A stretch of DNA of 8,480 nt from positions 1-8,480 of the IMG/VR virus record IMGVR_UViG_648276668_000009; one strand, written 5' to 3'. This document shows, piece after piece, positions 1 through 8,480 of the stretch. The notes below the pieces were generated by a model. The model saw only the letters and a program-made list of their open reading frames with translations. It ran no database searches and was not told the DNA's origin. The position numbers were made by a program, and so were the translations under genes. This stretch comes from a virus (taxonomy: Duplodnaviria > Heunggongvirae > Uroviricota > Caudoviricetes). Every line of letters starts with the position of its first letter. Position 1 is the stretch's first letter.

Positions 1-56
1 ACACCGTTTCGTTACCGGACAGTGCGATCCCGCCAGGCTTCAGGGGGTAACTGACC

Positions 57-803
57 ATGAAAAATATTGCGACAGGCGGCGTTCTTGAACGTATCCGCAG
101 ACTGGCTCCGTCACATGTAACCGCGCCATTCAAGACGGTGGCGGAGTGGCGTGAGTGGCAACTTTCCGAAGGCCAGAAACGTTGTGAGGAGATCAACCGT
201 CAGAATCGTCAGTTGCGGGTGGAAAAAATTCTGAATCGCTCTGGCATCCAGCCATTGCACCGCAAATGCTCGTTTTCGAATTACCAGGTGCAGAACGACG
301 GTCAGCGATACGCGTTGAGCCAGGCGAAATTCATCGCCGATGAACTGATGGTCGGGTGTACAAATTTTGCGTTCAGTGGAAAACCTGGTACCGGAAAAAA
401 CCATCTGGCGGCGGCTATCGGGAATCGCCTGCTGAAAGACGGTCAGACAGTGATTGTGGTTACCGTGGCTGATGTTATGAGCGCCCTGCACGCCAGCTAT
501 GACGACGGGCAGTCAGGCGAAAAATTTTTGCGGGAACTGTGCGAAGTTGATCTGCTGGTTCTTGATGAAATTGGTATTCAGCGCGAGACGAAAAACGAGC
601 AGGTGGTACTGCACCAGATTGTTGATCGCCGGACAGCGTCGATGCGCGGCGTGGGAATGCTGACAAACCTGAACTATGAGGCCATGAAAACATTGCTCGG
701 CGCGCGGATTATGGATCGCATGACCATGAACGGCGGACGCTGGGTGAATTTTAACTGGGAGAGCTGGCGTCCGAATGTCGTCCAGCCAGGAATTGCGAAG
801 TAA
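57..803 (+). CDS. ydaV: DnaC-like replicative helicase loader (IstB-like AAA+ ATPase), phage replication protein
   Basis: Seen: 248-aa ORF, ATG at 57 preceded by GGGGG (44-48). Walker A '[15 protein letters not shown]' and Walker B 'DLLVLDEIG' in DnaC/IstB arrangement. From memory it closely resembles Rac prophage YdaV; the symbol is recalled, not verified. Confidence 0.85.
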
Positions 804-825
804 TTTTTACCGGGAGAAAAATTTA

Positions 826-1587
826 ATGGAGACTGTTTTTGACGCACTGAAAGCAATGGGAATAGCCACATCCATAGAACTTGCTGCGCGACTTGATATC
901 AGTCGTGAAGAAGTGCTGAACGAACTATGGGAACTGAAAAAGGCTGGTTTTGTTGATAAAAGCGCGTACACCTGGCGTGTGGCTGATAACAACGTTCAGC
1001 AGGAACAGCCAGCGCAGGCAGAACTGCCGGAAGAAACCACCACAGCAACAGTAGCGAAAATCTCAGAGTGCGATTTAACCGCGACGATTGAACAACGCGG
1101 ACCACAAACGGCTGATGAGCTGGCTACATTGTTTGGTACCACATCACGCAAAGTGGCTTCAACGCTGGCAATGGCAATCAGCAAAGGTCGTCTGATTCGC
1201 GTAAATCAGGGCGGTAAATTTCGTTACTGCATACCGGGCGATAATTTACCAGCAGAGCCGAAAGCAGCATCGGTAGCGGAAACTGATGGTAAGGCCTTTC
1301 CTCAGACCGCAGGTGTCGCGTTACCAGTACAGGAGGCTGCAACACAGGAAGAAATTAAAACAGATACTATGGGGGACATTGTGCAGTCACTACCATCGTT
1401 CACTGAAACGCGAGCCAATGACCTGATTTTACCATCGCTGCATATGGCAAACCGCGAACTGCGCCGGGCGAAAAGTCATGTCCAGAAGTGGGAGCGAGTC
1501 TGCGCCGCGCTGCGTGAGCTGAACAAGCACCAGGATATTGTTCGACAGATTACGGATTCTTACCGCCGTGTTGCATCGGAAAAGTGA
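826..1587 (+). CDS. Prophage DNA-binding protein with two tandem winged-helix-like repeats (DUF1627-like, YdaW-like position)
   Basis: Seen: ORF track frame 775-1587; I prefer ATG at 826 (METVF...) because GGAGA at 813-817 sits 8 nt upstream and 775-825 overlaps the preceding gene. Two similar segments, '[32 protein letters not shown]' and '[33 protein letters not shown]', suggest duplicated wHTH domains. Family assignment is from memory. Confidence 0.6.
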
Positions 1588-1602
1588 TTGCCGGAGGCGC
1601 TT

Positions 1603-2025
1603 ATGGCAAAAGTATTTACACAAGAAGAGCGGGAAAAAATTAAAGGGCAGGTGGTTGAACTCGTGCGCCAGAGCGGTCGTGAGATGTTACGGCAACTGGA
1701 AGCTAAAACAGGCGCGACAAGATATCTGATGAGTGTTCTCGCCAGAGAGCTGGTTGCCAGTGGCGATGTATATAACTCCGGCTACGGGTTATTCCCGTCA
1801 GAACAGGCTCGTAAGGATTGGCAAAATGCCCGCAAAAAACTATCCAGGGCAAAGGTGAAGAAACCATCTGTGGTTGATCCTGACCTTATCTGGTCATTAC
1901 CTGACGGAGAAATACGTCGCTACGACAGGAGTATGAACATAATCTGTCACGAGTGCCGGAAGAGTGAAGTTATGCAGCGTGTATTAGCATTTTATCAGGG
2001 AAATGTTCGGTATTTATTGAAGTGA
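1603..2025 (+). CDS. Hypothetical prophage protein (about 140 aa), function unknown
   Basis: Seen: ORF frame 1588-2025; ATG at 1603 preferred, with GGAGG at 1593-1597 and a 5-nt spacer, just after the upstream stop at 1585-1587. Basic C-terminal half with a CxxC motif. E. coli-like codon usage and GC. Confidence 0.55.
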   Translation: MAKVFTQEEREKIKGQVVELVRQSGREMLRQLEAKTGATRYLMSVLARELVASGDVYNSGYGLFPSEQARKDWQNARKKLSRAKVKKPSVVDPDLIWSLPDGEIRRYDRSMNIICHECRKSEVMQRVLAFYQGNVRYLLK

Positions 2026-2243
2026 TGATATTAGAGTGGATCAGTTCATATGAGAATTGACATTTCTGCGTCATAGAGTGAACCACTAGTGGGGCTATTA
2101 GTTTTATCCCTCAAGCCGAAGTTGAAAATCTGACCATACGTTTATCTTAAGAAAGTATTTCACCTCTAATCGCCAACCAAAAATCTTGTTAAATTTCGCG
2201 CCGTTTAGAGGTGAGGTTAATAGATTTTGATTACCTGACCACC

Positions 2244-3122
2244 CTAGAGTGTAGATATAAAACGTTGATAGTGCCTAAGCACCTTAGAAGACATAAATAA
2301 ATTTGGGTTAGTCATGAAGCAAGTCATGGCAATATTTTTTAATGCATTAAAATCAATATTGCTCTTGGCATTAGAGTGTTTTTTGCTCATTGTGAGTGTT
2401 AATTTAAGCACTAAATACTCCAAAAAATGGCCCTGGATTATAGAGAAACTTTCGAACTTGTTATTTTTGATATAATCAATTGCTTCCTCCTTGGTCACTA
2501 TTCCATTAGCTTTTTGCACTAAACGTTCAAATTCTATTTTGGAAATGCAGTGTGGGAGTGATGTATCAACATTGATTCCAAGTTTTCCTCCTTTGTCCGA
2601 TATCTTAAATAAAAAACTTCCTTTTTTTAACATCAATATGTTAAGCTTATAAAGTAGTGATAATCTTCTTACACTTTTGCGAAGTGTTTTTATCAAATCA
2701 TCATTCGCGGAAGCATTATTCATTGTAAGTAATGAAATCAAGTGCACACATAATTTTTTGCTCCAGAAATCATTTTCCCAACTGTATCCTTTAGTGAAAA
2801 AAATATTTCTAGAATTAATTCTATTTCCAAGTATATCTACATAGTCCCTGTCGACAATAACAAATTGATTACCTATGTTTTCAGCGACTATTTTGTCATG
2901 GTAATTAAGAGCATCTCTTTTGCTTCCTGCAATGTTAATTTTTACTTTTTTGCTAGAAAAAATATTAAACAGCGTTCTATAGAACTTTATGTCGTAGAGA
3001 TCATTATCTGGAGTGGCCGCTTCAGTTAAATCACTCACTTTCCCCTCAATGTAAATGATTAGATCTACATCATGGAAATGATGAATGGATGACAAACCAC
3101 TATTAGTCCTTGTAAAGGTCAT
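2244..3122 (-). CDS. TOPRIM/DUF4435-like nuclease effector, candidate AriB-like partner
   Basis: Seen: 292-aa ORF, ATG at 3120-3122 overlapping the upstream stop; GAGGA SD inside the upstream gene's 3' end. N-terminal '..DLIIYIEGKVSD..' (Glu26) and 'FVIVDRDY' (D91-x-D93) fit a TOPRIM Glu + DxD signature. Size, order and coupling to the ATPase match AriA-AriB as I recall it. Confidence 0.7.
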   Translation of the reverse strand: MTFTRTNSGLSSIHHFHDVDLIIYIEGKVSDLTEAATPDNDLYDIKFYRTLFNIFSSKKVKINIAGSKRDALNYHDKIVAENIGNQFVIVDRDYVDILGNRINSRNIFFTKGYSWENDFWSKKLCVHLISLLTMNNASANDDLIKTLRKSVRRLSLLYKLNILMLKKGSFLFKISDKGGKLGINVDTSLPHCISKIEFERLVQKANGIVTKEEAIDYIKNNKFESFSIIQGHFLEYLVLKLTLTMSKKHSNAKSNIDFNALKNIAMTCFMTNPNLFMSSKVLRHYQRFISTL

Positions 3123-4402
3123 TTGAGAAATTCCTCTATTTTTATAAGGTATTCTTGTCTTTTTCCTACAATATCAGGAGAGTGTGTTGCAAATATTATT
3201 TGGGCATTTGGGTTTATTTTTGATATTGATTCTATTAGCCCCTCTTGCCAGTTTACATGAAGAGATAACTCTGGTTCATCTGCTATGTAGATTGTATGAT
3301 GCATCTCTTGTAATAAAGCCTCGCCAAGTATTATTATCATTTGTTTCTCGCCGGATGAAAGGTCTTTTAAAACAACAGATCTCCCATCACGATTTCTTAT
3401 TGATAGTTCATTCTCTTCAGAAACAAAAAAGGTTTTCCTTCCATCAAATAATGTGTTTAGCAATTCAATAAAGTTATCTCTCGGACTGAATATTACTAAT
3501 TTGCTGTTCTGTAATGAACCATATGCACTTACCAACTCATGAGCTCTAATAGAATTAAATAAGACCATGAATTCATCAAAGGAAAGTTCTTCACTGGAAT
3601 CTCTTTTTTTGAGTATGTGCTCAACTCTTTGATAGAGTTCGTTTATTTTTCTGTCATATCTACGCTTTTCTAAGCCTAAAGTTCTAAATACATCACTTAA
3701 AGTTGACTTATCTTCATCAACATTTATTGCTATTGAATTGGTCGGCGAAATGCCTTTATTATCAATGACCGATAAAAAAACGTTTTTTTGAAAATCAATT
3801 GTTTGCTCTGCAAACCTTTGGTCTAGTAAAGAAAAATAGCGAACCATCTTGTTGTTTAATTCAAAAAGCTTAACATCGATAAGCGAGTTGTTTTTGTAGT
3901 TGCCTGCGTTATCATTTGAGAAATTATCTGCTCTGTGGACTGATAGCCACGATAGTTTAAACATTTCTGAAAATATTACATTCAATTCTCTAGAATGCAA
4001 TATATGATTTTTTATATACAGTTTTTTTTCATCGTCGTAATATCTACGAGGAGATTTATTGAACGAGTCGTGAAAAAAATATTCTGCTGGGCTTTGATCT
4101 GTAGTGCTTTTTTTTATAATGTACTTTATGACATTATTACTAATGTCCACTCCTTGTTTGTATACTTCAATTATAGGTTTTTTATTCTTCCCAACTTCTT
4201 TCATTACAATTCTAGCTGAAATGAAATCAATTCTATCTATTTTCTCTATATCACACATTAAAATAGCGGATATGAGGTCAATAATAGTTGTTTTGCCTGT
4301 ACCATTGACACCTATGATGAAATTGAAGTTTTCATTTACTTTAATATTAACATCCTTTTTTCCCCAAAGCCCCTGGATAGCAATGCTGCTGACTATGTTC
4401 AC
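3119..4402 (-). CDS. ABC/OLD-family ATPase, candidate AriA-like sensor of a PARIS-like anti-phage system
   Basis: Seen: 427-aa ORF with GTG start at 4402 and AGGA SD (rc of 4410-4413) 7 nt upstream. N-terminal Walker A 'GVNGTGKT' (aa 31-38); C-terminal ABC-signature-like 'LSSGEKQ', Walker B 'IYIADEPE' and H-loop-like 'ATHSP'. Strongly AT-rich relative to flanks. Stop overlaps the next gene's start by 4 bp (ATGA). Confidence 0.8.
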   Translation of the reverse strand: MNIVSSIAIQGLWGKKDVNIKVNENFNFIIGVNGTGKTTIIDLISAILMCDIEKIDRIDFISARIVMKEVGKNKKPIIEVYKQGVDISNNVIKYIIKKSTTDQSPAEYFFHDSFNKSPRRYYDDEKKLYIKNHILHSRELNVIFSEMFKLSWLSVHRADNFSNDNAGNYKNNSLIDVKLFELNNKMVRYFSLLDQRFAEQTIDFQKNVFLSVIDNKGISPTNSIAINVDEDKSTLSDVFRTLGLEKRRYDRKINELYQRVEHILKKRDSSEELSFDEFMVLFNSIRAHELVSAYGSLQNSKLVIFSPRDNFIELLNTLFDGRKTFFVSEENELSIRNRDGRSVVLKDLSSGEKQMIIILGEALLQEMHHTIYIADEPELSLHVNWQEGLIESISKINPNAQIIFATHSPDIVGKRQEYLIKIEEFLK

Positions 4403-4893
4403 ATTATTTTCCTTGTTTTATAAATGCAGTGATGAATGTGATTTATTCATTTTCGGTTTGAGACTTTTATCAGTTGCATAATTTAAACAATAAACAATAA
4501 CTTTACAAGCACTTAACATAATTTGGTGGAAATATTAGGCGGTTAGATTTCAATTAACAATTAACCTGACGGTAACATCATGATATTGTTGACTTTTGGA
4601 GGTGGGGGGTATCAGAGGCCTGTCTATCTCATTGCTCCATTATAATCAAACGTTTGTTAGTTAGATCGTTATCTACTTTTGCTCATCACTCAAAGCGGAT
4701 TGTCAAAGCTAAATGCACACTGCCTACACAAAGTGTTGGCTTGCGTCTGACTTAGCGTCTTTAAAGAAGTGCTGGTGGTGACGGGTTGTTGTGTCCCATT
4801 TCCACAGAAAAATCAGAGAAACTATAGCGGCTGTAATGGCAATTTATTGTCTTGCTGTTGTTCTTATGGACCGCCTTTCTGATTGATTTCATA

Positions 4894-4922
4894 TTGGCGA
4901 GGTAACGGGAGTTAAGTAGAAT
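4894..4922 (+). promoter_or_regulatory. Candidate hok/mok mRNA promoter (-35 TTGGCG, 17-bp spacer, -10 TAGAAT)
   Basis: Seen: TTGGCG at 4894-4899 and TAGAAT at 4917-4922. Predicted transcript start near 4930 ('GGTGCTTGAGGCTGTCTGCCTC') resembles the 5' end of plasmid R1 hok mRNA as I remember it. Confidence 0.35.
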
Positions 4923-4984
4923 GGCTGCGGGTGCTTGAGGCTGTCTGCCTCGGGCATGAACACCAAAGGCAGATAGAGAAAAGC

Positions 4985-5049
4985 CCCAGTTAACATTATG
5001 CGTCCTGCAAGACGCTTAACATTAATCTGAGGCCACATCTATGCTTTGC
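4985..5049 (-). ncRNA. sok: Candidate Sok-like antisense RNA (antitoxin) covering the mok start region
   Basis: Inferred from the minus-strand promoter at 5056-5085 and analogy to R1 sok (about 64 nt, antisense to the mok translation initiation region). The 3' end is approximate. Confidence 0.4.
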
Positions 5050-5247
5050 ATACGTAGATTAGCCTCTTACGGACCGAAAGGTCAAGGAGAAGCAGGCTAT
5101 GAAGCAGCAAAAGGCGATGTTAATCGCCTTGATCGTCATCTGTTTAACCGTCATAGTGACGGCACTGGTAACGAGGAAAGACCTCTGCGAGGTACGAATC
5201 CGAACCGGCCAGACGGAGGTCGCTGTCTTCGTAGACTACGAATCTAG
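5041..5247 (+). CDS. mok: mok-like overlapping reading frame (modulator of hok translation)
   Basis: Seen: 68-codon ORF starting 58 nt upstream of hok, overlapping it in another frame and ending just before the hok stop. This is the mok/hok arrangement of R1-type loci. Functional translation not provable from sequence. Confidence 0.4.
   Translation: MLCIRRLASYGPKGQGEAGYEAAKGDVNRLDRHLFNRHSDGTGNEERPLRGTNPNRPDGGRCLRRLRI
5056..5085 (-). promoter_or_regulatory. Candidate Psok promoter (minus strand: -35 TTGACC, 18-bp spacer, -10 TAATCT)
   Basis: Seen: rc of 5080-5085 is TTGACC and rc of 5056-5061 is TAATCT. It points leftward across the mok start codon at 5041, as the R1 sok promoter does. Confidence 0.4.
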
Positions 5248-5254
5248 AGAGTAA
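5099..5254 (+). CDS. hok: Hok/Gef-family membrane toxin (type I toxin), HokD/RelF-like
   Basis: Seen: 51-codon ORF, hand-translated as MKQQKAMLIALIVICLTVIVTALVTRKDLCEVRIRTGQTEVAVFVDYESRE, stop TAA at 5252-5254. Hydrophobic N-terminal transmembrane segment and conserved 'RKxLCEV/IR' core typical of Hok. Absent from the ORF track only because it is short. Confidence 0.85.
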   Translation: MKQQKAMLIALIVICLTVIVTALVTRKDLCEVRIRTGQTEVAVFVDYESRE

Positions 5255-5263
5255 GAGTGACCA

Positions 5264-5285
5264 GGCGAGGGATTTCTCCCTCGCC
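5264..5285 (+). promoter_or_regulatory. Stable hairpin in hok 3' UTR (9-bp stem GGCGAGGGA / TCCCTCGCC, loop TTTC), possible fbi-like fold-back element
   Basis: Seen: perfect 9-bp inverted repeat at 5264-5272 and 5277-5285, just after the hok stop. R1-type hok mRNAs carry a 3' fold-back inhibitory element. Confidence 0.4.
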
Positions 5286-5326
5286 ACCTCTGATGAGTCA
5301 GGCATCCTCAATGTACCCACACTTAA

Positions 5327-5349
5327 CCCGCTTCGGCGGGTATATTTTA
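5327..5349 (+). terminator. Rho-independent terminator of hok mRNA
   Basis: Seen: CCCGC-TTCG-GCGGG hairpin (5327-5340) followed by the T-rich run TATATTTTAT. Confidence 0.55.
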
Positions 5350-5722
5350 TCTGTGAATATTTTTATAAAAATAATGCCCACGCACAGCATAAAACAAAAA
5401 GTATTACAGATAAAAAAGGAACGTAATGTGCAGATTTGTTGTTTTCCATATTTACTCACCTTAATATGATTAACACTGATAGGGTTGTTATTTCAGCGGT
5501 TTTCAAATGAGATATTATGGTGATCTGACAAATTTGCATAACATTAAAATTTAATTTGTTTAACCGCTTTTAATAATAAGCGTTGTTTGTATCCCAGCAA
5601 TCTGTTGTTTGGTTTTTATTCCATTAAGGTGGGGGCTTTACACTGGAACCAGTTTATTTATACTTTATACGTCAGCCTGAACAACTGGCATCTGCTGCAC
5701 TGCGCCATCGAGAGATTGAGAA

Positions 5723-6322
5723 ATGGCGCATATACAACTGGTCAAACAAACTTCTTCTGGTTTACTTCTCCCGGCGACGCCGGAGAGTTGCGATTTTCTG
5801 CATCAAATCAAAATAGGTGAGTGGATACACGCAGACTTTAAGCGTGTGCGTAACTACGCATTCCACAAGCGTTTTTTCAAACTCCTGCAACTGGGATTCG
5901 ATTACTGGACTCCGGTCGGTGGGGCGATCACGCCTCGCGAACGAGAACTGCTGTCTGGTTTCGTTGATTACCTGTGCGAATCAGTTGGTCGGGAACACAC
6001 GCCAGCCCTGAGTGATGCCGCAGAGCAATATCTGAATACAGTTGCGACACGCAGAACCCGGGATACGGCATTGCTAAAGTCGTTTGAGACTTTTCGCGAG
6101 TGGGTAACCATTCAGGCTGGATTTTACACCGAACATTTTTATCCGGACGGTAGCCATGGGCGTCGGGCGAAATCCATCGCTTTTGCGAATATGGACGAAA
6201 CCGAGTTTCAGCAGGTTTATAAATCTGTTCTGAATGTGCTGTGGAACTGGATTCTGTTCCGTAAATTTTCCTCTCCGGAACAAGTCGAAAATGTAACCGC
6301 GCAGCTGCTGGAGTTTGCGTAA
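5723..6322 (+). CDS. DUF1367-like prophage nin-region protein (199 aa)
   Basis: Seen: ORF with ATG at 5723 preceded by a GAGA-rich stretch. Its stop overlaps the next start by 1 nt (TAATG at 6319-6324). Sits directly upstream of a YbcO-like gene as in lambdoid nin regions. Family name is from memory. Confidence 0.7.
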   Translation: MAHIQLVKQTSSGLLLPATPESCDFLHQIKIGEWIHADFKRVRNYAFHKRFFKLLQLGFDYWTPVGGAITPRERELLSGFVDYLCESVGREHTPALSDAAEQYLNTVATRRTRDTALLKSFETFREWVTIQAGFYTEHFYPDGSHGRRAKSIAFANMDETEFQQVYKSVLNVLWNWILFRKFSSPEQVENVTAQLLEFA

Positions 6323-6612
6323 TGGTGGATTTACGTAAAGCGGCGCGGGGGCAGATGTGCACCGTCAGAATTCCTGGCTACTGCAATCACGATCCGGAAA
6401 CGTCTGTGCTGGCGCATTACCGACTGGCGGGAACGTGCGGAATAGCGACAAAACCACACGATATGCAGGCGGCGATTGCCTGTAGCTCATGCCACGATCT
6501 AATCGACGGGCGGGTAAAAACCAGCGATTACACCAAAGAAGAATTACGCCTGATGCATGCAGAAGGTGTTTTTCGCACACAAGAAATCTGGAGAAAGGAG
6601 GGATATTTGTGA
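6322..6612 (+). CDS. YbcO-like DUF1364 protein (putative Zn-binding nuclease of lambdoid nin region)
   Basis: Seen: 96-aa ORF 'MVDLRKAARGQMCTVRIPGYCNHDPETSVLAHYRLAGTCGIATKPHDMQAAIACSSCHDLIDGR...' with Cys/His spacing typical of a Zn site. From memory it closely resembles DLP12 YbcO. Confidence 0.8.
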   Translation: MVDLRKAARGQMCTVRIPGYCNHDPETSVLAHYRLAGTCGIATKPHDMQAAIACSSCHDLIDGRVKTSDYTKEELRLMHAEGVFRTQEIWRKEGYL

Positions 6613-7151
6613 TTTACCCAACGAATACAGGAAAAAGCGGAGAACACCTTCGTCTCGCCACGCTGGAAAGTGTCTGGATTCAGGGCAAACTGCGTATGTG
6701 GGGGCGCTGGTCGTATATTGGCGGTGGCAGGTCAGGAAATATGTTCAATCAGTTGTTGGCATCCCAAAAATTGACGAAAACAGCCATCAATGAAGCCCTG
6801 CGCAGAATGAAAAAAGCGGGAATAGAGAAAGCTGAGCTGGAAGCGTTTTTGAGAGAGATGATCAACGGCAAGCAAAAGAGCTGGCTGGCGCATTGTACTG
6901 ATGCAGAGGCGTTATGTATTGATCGAGTCATAAGTGAGGTGCTGGCAGAGCATCCAGGATTGATTTGCATTCTCCGGCAACGCTATGAAGGGCGGGGGAT
7001 GACTAAGCGTAAAATGGCTGAATTGCTACATGATGCACACCCAGAGTGGTGTTTTAGCACATGCGAAAAACGGATTGCTAATTGGTTAGCTGTTGCTGAG
7101 TATGTCCTATATATTCCCATGCGTGAATCATTTGCTGAGAAAATGGCTTGA
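6609..7151 (+). CDS. Putative late-gene antiterminator (Q-like)
   Basis: Seen: GTG at 6609-6611 overlapping the YbcO-like TGA stop (GTGA) with a strong AGGAGG SD at 6595-6600. This start is preferred over the in-frame ATG at 6489, which lies inside the upstream gene. Function is inferred mainly from synteny (hok, DUF1367/DUF1364, then Q, as in Qin), not from a recognised motif. Confidence 0.5.
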   Translation: MIYPTNTGKSGEHLRLATLESVWIQGKLRMWGRWSYIGGGRSGNMFNQLLASQKLTKTAINEALRRMKKAGIEKAELEAFLREMINGKQKSWLAHCTDAEALCIDRVISEVLAEHPGLICILRQRYEGRGMTKRKMAELLHDAHPEWCFSTCEKRIANWLAVAEYVLYIPMRESFAEKMA

Positions 7152-7182
7152 TTTCTTACGTATAAACTGCTTCAATTTCGCT

Positions 7183-7186
7183 ATGC
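7183..7186. repeat. Left copy of 4-bp direct repeat (ATGC) flanking the IS, putative target-site duplication
   Basis: Seen: ATGC immediately left of the IS end (7183-7186) and ATGC immediately right of it (8436-8439). Confidence 0.5.
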
Positions 7187-7194
7187 TGAAGTGG

Positions 7195-8363
<1,169 letters not shown>

Positions 8364-8435
8364 TGGAGCACCTGTGTTGTTCTGAGGTGAGCATATCACC
8401 TCTGTTCAGGTGGCCAAATTCAGTGTGCCACTTCA

Positions 8436-8439
8436 ATGC
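8436..8439. repeat. Right copy of 4-bp direct repeat (ATGC) flanking the IS
   Basis: Seen: see left copy. Confidence 0.5.
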
Positions 8440-8480
8440 TTCGCAAAGCTGTATCGCGAGGCGAACAATCCCACGGATAC

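Follow-up and report, generated by a model that had tools for sequence, protein, structure and literature searches.

We found that a three-gene cassette in the IMG/VR virus record IMGVR_UViG_648276668_000009 (Duplodnaviria; Heunggongvirae; Uroviricota; Caudoviricetes) ends in a Q-like antiterminator gene that starts at the GTG codon at position 6609, and that the longer open reading frame (ORF) from ATG 6489 is an over-extension. The stretch analyzed, referred to here as the window, comprises positions 1 to 8,480 of that record and, on sequence comparison, is part of a Rac/Gifsy-type lambdoid prophage. The cassette encodes a DUF1367 protein, YbcO (DUF1364) and a DUF1133 protein; the last of these is well supported, by homology, fold prediction and gene context, as a divergent member of the phage 21 Q antiterminator lineage. 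The explanation that combines this gene model and this lineage with translational coupling along one operon is, as a whole, one that we regard as probable. The window was compared with two sets of loci, namely 27 loci from contigs representing one genome per species (52–97% protein identity) and 80 IMG/VR viral contigs (L031–L110), 79 of which carry the Q gene. The genes and their junctions are as follows.

5723–6322, plus strand: DUF1367 (IrsA-like) gene, 199 aa, ATG start; Pfam PF07105, E 3.5e-95

6322–6612, plus strand: YbcO/DUF1364 gene, 96 aa, ATG start; Pfam PF07102, E 3.1e-45

6609–7151, plus strand: DUF1133 gene, Q-like (AntQ-type) antiterminator, 180 aa, GTG start; PF06576, E 1e-106

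6320–6324, plus strand: TAATG junction, DUF1367 stop and YbcO start, read from the sequence

6609–6612, plus strand: GTGA junction, Q-like start and YbcO stop, read from the sequence

6596–6601, plus strand: AGGAGG, Shine-Dalgarno sequence of the Q-like gene, within the coding sequence of YbcO; -12.1 kcal/mol for pairing with the 16S rRNA 3' end

6489–6608, plus strand: spurious 5' extension of the Q-like ORF, which by comparison codes only in the YbcO frame

The three products match their families over their full or nearly full lengths. Residues 1–198 of the DUF1367 product align to positions 1–198 of the PF07105 profile, and the protein is 99.5% identical to WP_085438227.1, the RefSeq protein with corresponding coordinates; a solved structural relative was looked for and none was found. 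The YbcO product, a small putative nuclease, aligns over its full length with the prophage YbcO structure PDB 3G27 (E 1.3e-30, residues 1–95 on 1–93) and is 100% identical to WP_000228023.1. The DUF1133 product scores 354 bits against PF06576 (cut-off 23.1), with residues 1–175 on profile positions 1–175 of 176, and is 100% identical to WP_000640108.1. NCBIfam gave zero matches for all three proteins. In the Salmonella locus L009, the DUF1367 gene (1615–2211) has an in-frame stop and is probably a pseudogene, and the downstream YbcO and Q-like genes are intact.

The start of the Q-like gene had been placed at 6609 in an earlier note on this DNA, which regarded the call from 6489 as probably too long; profile, homolog, substitution and Shine-Dalgarno evidence all bear this out. 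The ATG at 6489 lies in frame and opens an ORF of 220 aa, with a 120-nt overlap with the YbcO gene. Position 1 of the DUF1133 profile falls on residue 1 of the 180-aa product, the GTG codon, which is residue 41 of the 220-aa version. Among the IMG/VR loci, the codon homologous to GTG 6609 is ATG in 68 of 79 and GTG in 11 of 79; among the species-representative loci the homologous start is intact in 23 of 27, as ATG in 22 of these 23 and as GTG in one (L005). Because the homologous codon is mostly ATG, the GTG is a minority allele of a conserved start and not a doubtful call. Met1-Ile2 is invariant and the N-terminal region conserved in 19 homologs, down to 51% identity.

The 220-aa reading, in which the Q-like protein would be translated from ATG 6489 in a second frame across the last 40 ybcO codons, can appeal to an ORF that is open from 6489 with ATG as its first codon, and to the ATG, GTG or TTG found at the equivalent position in several close relatives. 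The substitution pattern speaks against it most directly: across 36 distinct sequences of 6489–6608, codon differences are 147 synonymous to 51 non-synonymous in the YbcO frame and 7 to 207 in the extension frame, which is moreover broken by a stop in 21 of 93 loci. In-frame stops lie 3–48 nt upstream of the equivalent of 6609 in many relatives, including the 97%-identical Shigella locus L004, and the extension falls outside the Pfam and PHROG profiles and outside the alignment of the homologs. The alignment with the phage 21 protein Q21 begins at Q21 residues 6–13, which correspond to residues 14–21 of the 180-aa form. A Shine-Dalgarno sequence is absent ahead of 6489, where pairing with the 16S rRNA 3' end reaches -2.1 kcal/mol as compared to -12.1 ahead of 6609. 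By comparison, the extension is not coding in the Q-like frame; the 220-aa reading is effectively refuted and we give it next to no chance. The comparative argument is clean, and ORF callers that return the 220-aa product are wrong.

The DUF1133 protein still carries the name "domain of unknown function" in Pfam and RefSeq. The label "Q-like" in the earlier note had been left to a profile search of the 180-aa product against antiterminator families, and this search brought up both PF06530 and PHROG 753, so similarity to such families is present. PHROG 753 ("anti-termination protein Q-like") was matched with E 3e-78. PF06530, the Q21/Q933W family according to Yin, Kaelber and Ebright (10.1101/651190), was matched marginally, with 26.5 bits at a cut-off of 26.0; the 220-aa version scored 25.7 bits, below the cut-off. 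When the single DUF1133 sequence was compared with the PDB, Q21 chains were the best matches at an E of only 0.34, while a profile of 19 DUF1133 members matched the Q21 chains 6P18/6JNX at E 2.2e-5, with the next match at E 0.27. This profile match consists of two colinear stretches and covers most of Q21. An AlphaFold2 model built with 60 homologs had a mean pLDDT of 69.7, with 84–96 in the C-terminal half and values below 70 in the N-terminal half. In a Foldseek search of the PDB, the top 11 matches were all Q21 (probability 1.00; TM-score 0.60–0.68 by target and 0.49–0.54 by query) and the next match had E 2.5, which leaves Q21 (PDB 6P18, 6P19, 6JNX) as the sole significant fold match of the model. 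DUF1133 has already been labeled "Q antiterminator (HHPred)" in a published survey (PMC8136144).

The relationship with Q21 is a distant one, with an identity of only ~16–18% and DUF1133 forming a separate Pfam family (PF06576). Relative to Q21, the DUF1133 protein has ~30 extra residues inserted after the first conserved helix, ahead of the core, and it has no counterpart of the Q21 loop near residues 115–128. The two share the same genomic logic, in which the Q gene is followed by the late promoter, then by a short leader and a terminator, and finally by the lysis genes.

The remoteness of this similarity, the marginal PF06530 score, the insertion and missing loop, and the family's present name would all suit a different DNA-binding regulator, one that shares the sigma-region-4-like fold of Q21 and is not a late-gene antiterminator. 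Against such a regulator stands the canonical Q position of the DUF1133 gene, which in most relatives examined directly precedes a promoter-like element; a short leader and a strong terminator come next, and then the lysis genes. The C-terminal sequence of the protein also switches with the type of downstream leader, and Gifsy-1 AntQ, encoded at the same position, promotes transcription elongation and has a toxicity that is relieved by Rho (PMC4825925). We therefore consider a regulator of another kind very unlikely, and membership of the Q21 lineage remains the preferred reading.

A positional counterpart is found in the Salmonella prophage Gifsy-1. Its antQ operon consists of the four genes SL2582, SL2581, SL2580 and SL2579 and has a transcription start that lies 1,600 nt ahead of antQ (Hershko-Shalev et al. 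2016, PMC4825925); co-transcription of the operon was reported experimentally, and isrK lies directly after antQ (PMC4825925). The same study showed that over-expression of AntQ is toxic, that the protein promotes transcription elongation across the genome and that Rho counteracts it (PMC4825925). The isrK-type loci L009 (Salmonella) and L006 (E. coli) have the same DUF1367/IrsA–YbcO–Q order with the same 1-nt and 4-nt overlaps, and their Q-like proteins are 82–86% identical to the window protein. In both loci the Rfam family isrK (RF01394) starts 33 nt past the DUF1133 stop and 7 nt past the TATATT -10 of a promoter, TTGACT-18-TATATT, whose -35 overlaps the DUF1133 stop codon. This adjacency of DUF1133 and isrK is the published antQ–isrK arrangement, and by its sequence and position the DUF1133 protein appears to be the positional equivalent of Gifsy-1 AntQ (SL2579).

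In L006 (3075–3276) and L009 (3088–3268), isrK is followed at once by a match to the C4 antisense RNA (RF01695), and in L006 a match to the c4-a1b1 target (RF03163) also overlaps. Because of these matches, the late-leader RNA of isrK-type prophages is assigned, on Rfam similarity, to the P1/P7 C4-type antisense clan.

The window differs from the Gifsy loci in several ways. The irsA (DUF1367) homolog of Gifsy prophages lies within a LexA-controlled dinI–antirepressor–irsA operon (Lemire et al. 2011, PMC3121763), whereas in the window the upstream dinI and antirepressor partner genes are absent, and DUF1367 is preceded by a hok/sok module and a 470-nt spacer that has a promoter-like site of its own. 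A LexA box (CTGT-N8-ACAG, one mismatch allowed) was not found near the cassette, and the LexA control of Gifsy is for this reason not transferable to the window locus. Between hok and DUF1367 there is no homolog of the Rac "rem" antirepressor. The start codon of the window Q gene is GTG and not ATG, and the region after it is of another type than in Gifsy-1, without isrK, with a different leader block and interrupted by IS911.

Rac prophages offer a further comparison. The records MN652886 (irsA-ybcO-q), KU052037 (Rac-SA53) and NZ_CP141767 have the same cassette, coordinates and start choices as the window. DNA identity is 99.9% for NZ_CP141767, whose YbcO and Q proteins do not differ from those of the window (100% identity), while MN652886 has a rem antirepressor gene upstream, an ATG start for q and a Q protein that is 76% identical. 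The earlier note had called the cassette a "nin-region operon". As a statement of position this stands, since lambda Q and the nin region likewise lie between the replication genes and the late promoter, and the nin region also holds small DNA-metabolism genes and ends in a late-gene antiterminator. As a statement of homology it does not: the window Q-like protein has no detectable homology to lambda Q (PF03589), and the DUF1367 product, which matches PHROG 319 with its NinB/Orf label, has no match to Pfam NinB. For these reasons, "nin" is used as a positional label only.

The cassette has no intergenic space; all three genes lie on the same strand and are joined by overlaps of 1 nt and 4 nt. 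At the first junction, TAA (6320–6322) and ATG (6322–6324) share base A6322. The earlier note was right about this overlap and not about its coordinates, which it gave as 6319–6324; the G at 6319 still belongs to the Ala codon before the stop, as its last base. TAATG is found at this junction in 78 of 80 IMG/VR loci and TGATG in the other two. The YbcO ATG is preceded at a distance of 8 nt by GGAG (6310–6313), whose duplex energy is -5.9 kcal/mol. At the second junction, GTG (6609–6611) and TGA (6610–6612) overlap as GTGA, exactly as described before, and the spacer between AGGAGG and GTG is 7 nt (6602–6608), or the previously given 8 if counted from the last G. The xTGA register recurs in all 79 IMG/VR relatives that carry the Q gene. 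All 11 GTG-start alleles have AGGAGGG, the strongest Shine-Dalgarno sequence, while most ATG alleles have the weaker AGGAAGG or AGAAAGG; this pairing may reflect compensation or simply shared ancestry, and compensation is not claimed, as shared ancestry may suffice.

Overlaps of 1 nt and 4 nt are the commonest kinds in bacterial operons and genomes, so their presence alone is unremarkable. Their conservation is another matter. The 4-nt xTGA overlap also occurs where an unrelated gene precedes Q (L014–16, L019 and L027), the upstream genes there being a RusA-like protein of 122 aa, a 219-aa protein and a 61-aa ORF. As compared across these loci, the junction overlaps are conserved beyond chance. 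Each of the two overlaps is accompanied by a Shine-Dalgarno sequence inside the upstream gene (6310–6313 and 6596–6601), and folding predicts a structure around the Q start.

6563–6650, plus strand: predicted long-range stem around the Q start, in which 6563–6576 pairs with 6637–6650

This stem would enclose the Q Shine-Dalgarno sequence and the start codon, with one arm (6563–6576) inside ybcO and the other (6637–6650) formed by Q codons 10–14; an inner helix, predicted in the GTG allele, would pair the GUG as well. The minimum free energy (MFE) of 6565–6650 is -22.5 kcal/mol, with a z-score of -3.3. Every one of the 22 distinct variants, the distant Citrobacter locus L025 among them, is predicted to form the outer stem of 13–14 bp, and 94.8% of the cells in the stem alignment are paired as compared to 42–62% in slid registers. 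These predictions are consistent with a real structure.

The operon reading is in line with genes that are on the same strand and free of gaps; two weak terminator-like matches inside DUF1367 are at chance level. It also has experimental support in a close relative, since the Gifsy-1 antQ operon has been reported (PMC4825925). In the Gifsy-1 prophage, AUGA coupling was shown experimentally for the orf45–anrP pair. We suggest that the three genes would be transcribed on one mRNA, from a promoter at ~5637–5664 or from further upstream. Ribosomes that end ybcO translation at UGA 6610–6612 would melt the stem enclosing the Q start site and would then re-initiate, or permit initiation, at the overlapping GUG. 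Q output would in this way depend on translation of the two preceding genes and could not exceed what this translation allows. The amount made of a protein whose overproduction is toxic in Gifsy-1 would be kept down further by the weak GUG and by sequestration of the DUF1367 start codon. The Q-like protein would load on RNA polymerase at a promoter just past its own stop codon, and the loaded polymerase would be carried through the nearby terminator into the lysis genes.

The overlaps may instead be compact phage packing, with each gene initiating independently from its own Shine-Dalgarno sequence and no functional coupling. This reading draws on the perfect AGGAGG at optimal spacing ahead of Q, on the commonness of such overlaps, on a stem without covariation support, and on the Met-Ile N-terminus, which gives ATGA automatically, so that the recurrence of xTGA may be partly a by-product. 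It fits less well with an upstream stop that stands in the exact xTGA register even when the upstream gene is unrelated, with a stem over the start site that is predicted in every variant, L025 among them, and with the coupling demonstrated for orf45–anrP, a neighboring pair in the related Gifsy-1. Packing without coupling thus seems to us rather unlikely. Functional translational coupling is plausible, and it is the view towards which we lean.

Several points count against the combined explanation. The perfect AGGAGG with its 7-nt spacing could initiate unaided by upstream ribosomes, and the stem shows one-sided transitions only, without two-sided compensatory changes, at counts not above shuffles. 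The equation with AntQ rests on the isrK adjacency and on the 82–86% identity to the L006 and L009 proteins, and the mapped transcription start of Gifsy-1 lies further upstream than the promoter-like site of the window. The AlphaFold model is only moderately confident, given its mean pLDDT and its N-terminal half, the PF06530 score is close to the cut-off, and no NCBIfam model names the DUF1133 protein. Coupling, promoter use and antitermination at the window locus are all things that we infer.

Upstream of the cassette, the DUF1367 gene is preceded by a conserved leader with the following elements.

5637–5664, plus strand: promoter-like site TTTACA-16 nt-TATACT, ~58 nt upstream of the DUF1367 start, 10/12 consensus match

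5671–5689, plus strand: leader hairpin 1, GUCAG-CCUGAACAA-CUGGC, a 5-bp stem with a conserved UGAAC-containing loop

5700–5730, plus strand: leader hairpin 2, box CUGCGCCAU pairing with AUGGCGCA, with the Shine-Dalgarno region in the loop

Promoter-like sites of this kind are no more numerous in the region than chance would give. Relatives that otherwise have unrelated sequence upstream keep the -10 hexamer (TATACT, TATAAT or TACAAT) in the same place. Among 46 distinct leaders, three features are conserved, namely this hexamer, the hairpin at 5671–5689 and the box CTGCGCCAT at 5700–5708, and the leader (5659–5730) is also found upstream of DUF1367 in L002–L017, L025 and L031–L110. Hairpin 1 shows two-sided changes in four of its five stem pairs across 24 distinct leaders, with 88.6% of cells paired. 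In hairpin 2, the box at 5700–5708 pairs with its partner at 5723–5730, and this partner, ATGGCGCA, consists of the DUF1367 start codon and five further bases. The predicted energy of hairpin 2 is -13.1 kcal/mol, the probability that the AUG region is unpaired is 0.12, and RNAalifold independently predicts its 6-bp core. Two compensatory changes were seen in this stem: C-G to U-A in the Rac-442/2 type (GCG to GCA with GCGCC to GTGCC) and G-C to A-U in L008 (ATGGCG to GTGGTG with GCGCC to GCACC).

The leader structure looks real and looks as if it limits initiation at DUF1367. It is a tentative idea, and one we hold to be doubtful, that the leader acts as a translational gate for the whole coupled operon and hence for the dose of a potentially toxic AntQ-type antiterminator. 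Opening of hairpin 2, perhaps triggered by an RNA or protein that recognizes hairpin 1, would start DUF1367 translation, which through the 1-nt and 4-nt overlaps would license the synthesis of YbcO and Q. At a permissive threshold, Rfam matched only sok in the window and returned nothing for the DUF1367 leader or the post-Q region; a literature search found no description of a leader element of this kind, and Rfam holds none. The loop motif CCTGAACAA, with one mismatch allowed, has 9 matches in the window as compared to 2.3 expected. A repeated RNA site built on this motif was dropped, as none of the remaining copies sits in a comparable hairpin and four of them fall within IS911, and hairpin 1 was rejected as a boxB-like element because its stem register does not fit.

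Downstream of Q, the late-promoter region of the window has been split by an insertion sequence (IS).

7148–7187, plus strand: late-promoter remains, TTGATT (overlapping the Q stop), 17 nt, TTCAAT, then TATGCT

7187–8435/8436, minus strand: full-length IS911 (IS3 family), 35 nt past the Q stop, with its transposase genes on the minus strand

8437–8480, plus strand: displaced late-leader continuation, conserved block GCTTCGCAAAGCTGTATCGCGAGGCG, identical to L001 7585–7629

A -35-like TTGAnn overlaps the Q stop in nearly all relatives and is followed by a TANGCT hexamer, itself conserved in most subtypes examined, and a conserved leader block, with a strong intrinsic terminator within ~60–110 nt. 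Holin and lysozyme genes lie downstream of Q in intact relatives. This arrangement of promoter, leader, terminator and lysis genes is intact in L001, L002 and most of the 27 loci. The isrK-type loci L006 and L009, with TTGACT-18-TATATT, share the geometry of window positions 7148–7187; TTCAAT and TATGCT are both candidates for the -10 of the window promoter. The last ~25 C-terminal residues of the DUF1133 protein change together with the downstream leader type, and this co-change suggests that the C-terminal part may read the adjacent DNA. A Q binding element and a pause element could not be defined from sequence.

Over 1250 bp, the IS911 copy of the window has 98.2% identity with the one annotated in phage Sf6. 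Its ends are TGAAGTGG...CCACTTCA, it is flanked by a target duplication (A)TGC at 7183–7186 and 8436–8439, and L001 represents the uninterrupted site. The IS911 junction at Q is absent from all 5,426 complete E. coli genomes. The 44 nt after IS911 continue the leader block of L001, and the window ends just before the terminator. The L001 terminator is a strong intrinsic hairpin at 7621–7664 (folded stretch 7585–7665, MFE -39.9 kcal/mol, z-score -9.2); a consensus terminator scan had missed it because its stem runs into the A and U runs, and folding recovered it. Depending on the choice of -10, the late transcript would run into IS911 at ~+3/+4, or IS911 would border on the -10 itself. Whichever -10 is used, 1.25 kb of antisense-read IS lies between the promoter and the leader, terminator and late genes. 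Because IS911 separates the promoter region from the leader and terminator, the link between Q and its own late operon is probably broken in this genome.

The Q-like gene itself is broken in some loci. In L012 and L013 (at about 2501) it is interrupted by IS911 at residue 35, and in L029 and L030 (at about 2614) it is truncated after residue 38 next to IS3-family transposase sequence; these broken copies come from a Shigella flexneri genome and an E. coli genome. This suggests that IS inactivation of the antiterminator module has been repeated.

The setting of the cassette is well represented in databases. The 1.65-kb region around it is 99.9% identical in DNA comparison to a Rac prophage region of E. 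coli T-HYM1, and 1,296 of the 5,426 complete E. coli genomes have a match that covers at least 80% of it. The RefSeq record of T-HYM1 has the order ydaU, ydaV, DUF1627, DUF977, an opposite-strand AAA ATPase with DUF4435, hok, DUF1367, DUF1364 and DUF1133, followed 3' of DUF1133 by ~1.2 kb of non-coding DNA and then by holin, lysozyme and Rz-type genes. Its three coding sequences map exactly to window positions 5723–6322, 6322–6612 and 6609–7151, and the cassette coordinates are identical in the RefSeq/GenBank annotation of L001, L002 and L003. Induced E. coli phages and a deposited "phage Rac" fragment have the same three genes with the same start choices; the third is named "antitermination protein Q" or "prophage antiterminator; DUF1133 family protein" in those records. 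One locus, L010 (contig JARKOR010000130.1), is labeled as a Candidatus Nanosynbacter metagenome-assembled genome and carries the Enterobacteriaceae prophage cassette at 98% identity; it is most likely a binning contaminant.

Two further modules lie upstream of the cassette in the window. On the minus strand, positions 2244–4402 hold a two-gene cassette for an AAA/ABC-type ATPase (427 aa) and a DUF4435 protein (292 aa), with a 4-nt start/stop overlap at 3119–3122. The pair matches the PADLOC models AriA (E 1.2e-39) and AriB (E 1.8e-12), and because of these matches it is assigned, by sequence similarity, as a PARIS-type anti-phage defense pair carried as prophage cargo. Positions 4929–5254 hold a hok/sok type I toxin–antitoxin module (Rfam sok, 105 bits; Hok/Gef peptide of 51 aa at 5099–5254). 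Downstream of hok there is a GC-rich hairpin with a T-rich tail at 5326–5341, followed by an AT-rich spacer. This hairpin could be a terminator of the hok mRNA and, if it terminates, the hok/sok module would be separated from the three-gene cassette.

The DUF1367–YbcO–Q cassette is ordinary, already annotated and described. The gene model confirmed here is one that RefSeq already applies in more than 1,000 E. coli genomes, so the consequence of confirming it is small, and an operon of this kind has already been described experimentally in Gifsy-1. Only the leader structure and the IS911 insertion go beyond existing database content, and the conserved DUF1367 leader is the sole element that might lead to something new. 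The link of a "domain of unknown function", DUF1133, to the Q21 fold and to AntQ helps in annotating Rac/Gifsy-type prophages. The prophage studied here is probably unable to switch on its lysis genes normally, yet it retains a potentially toxic Q-like gene.

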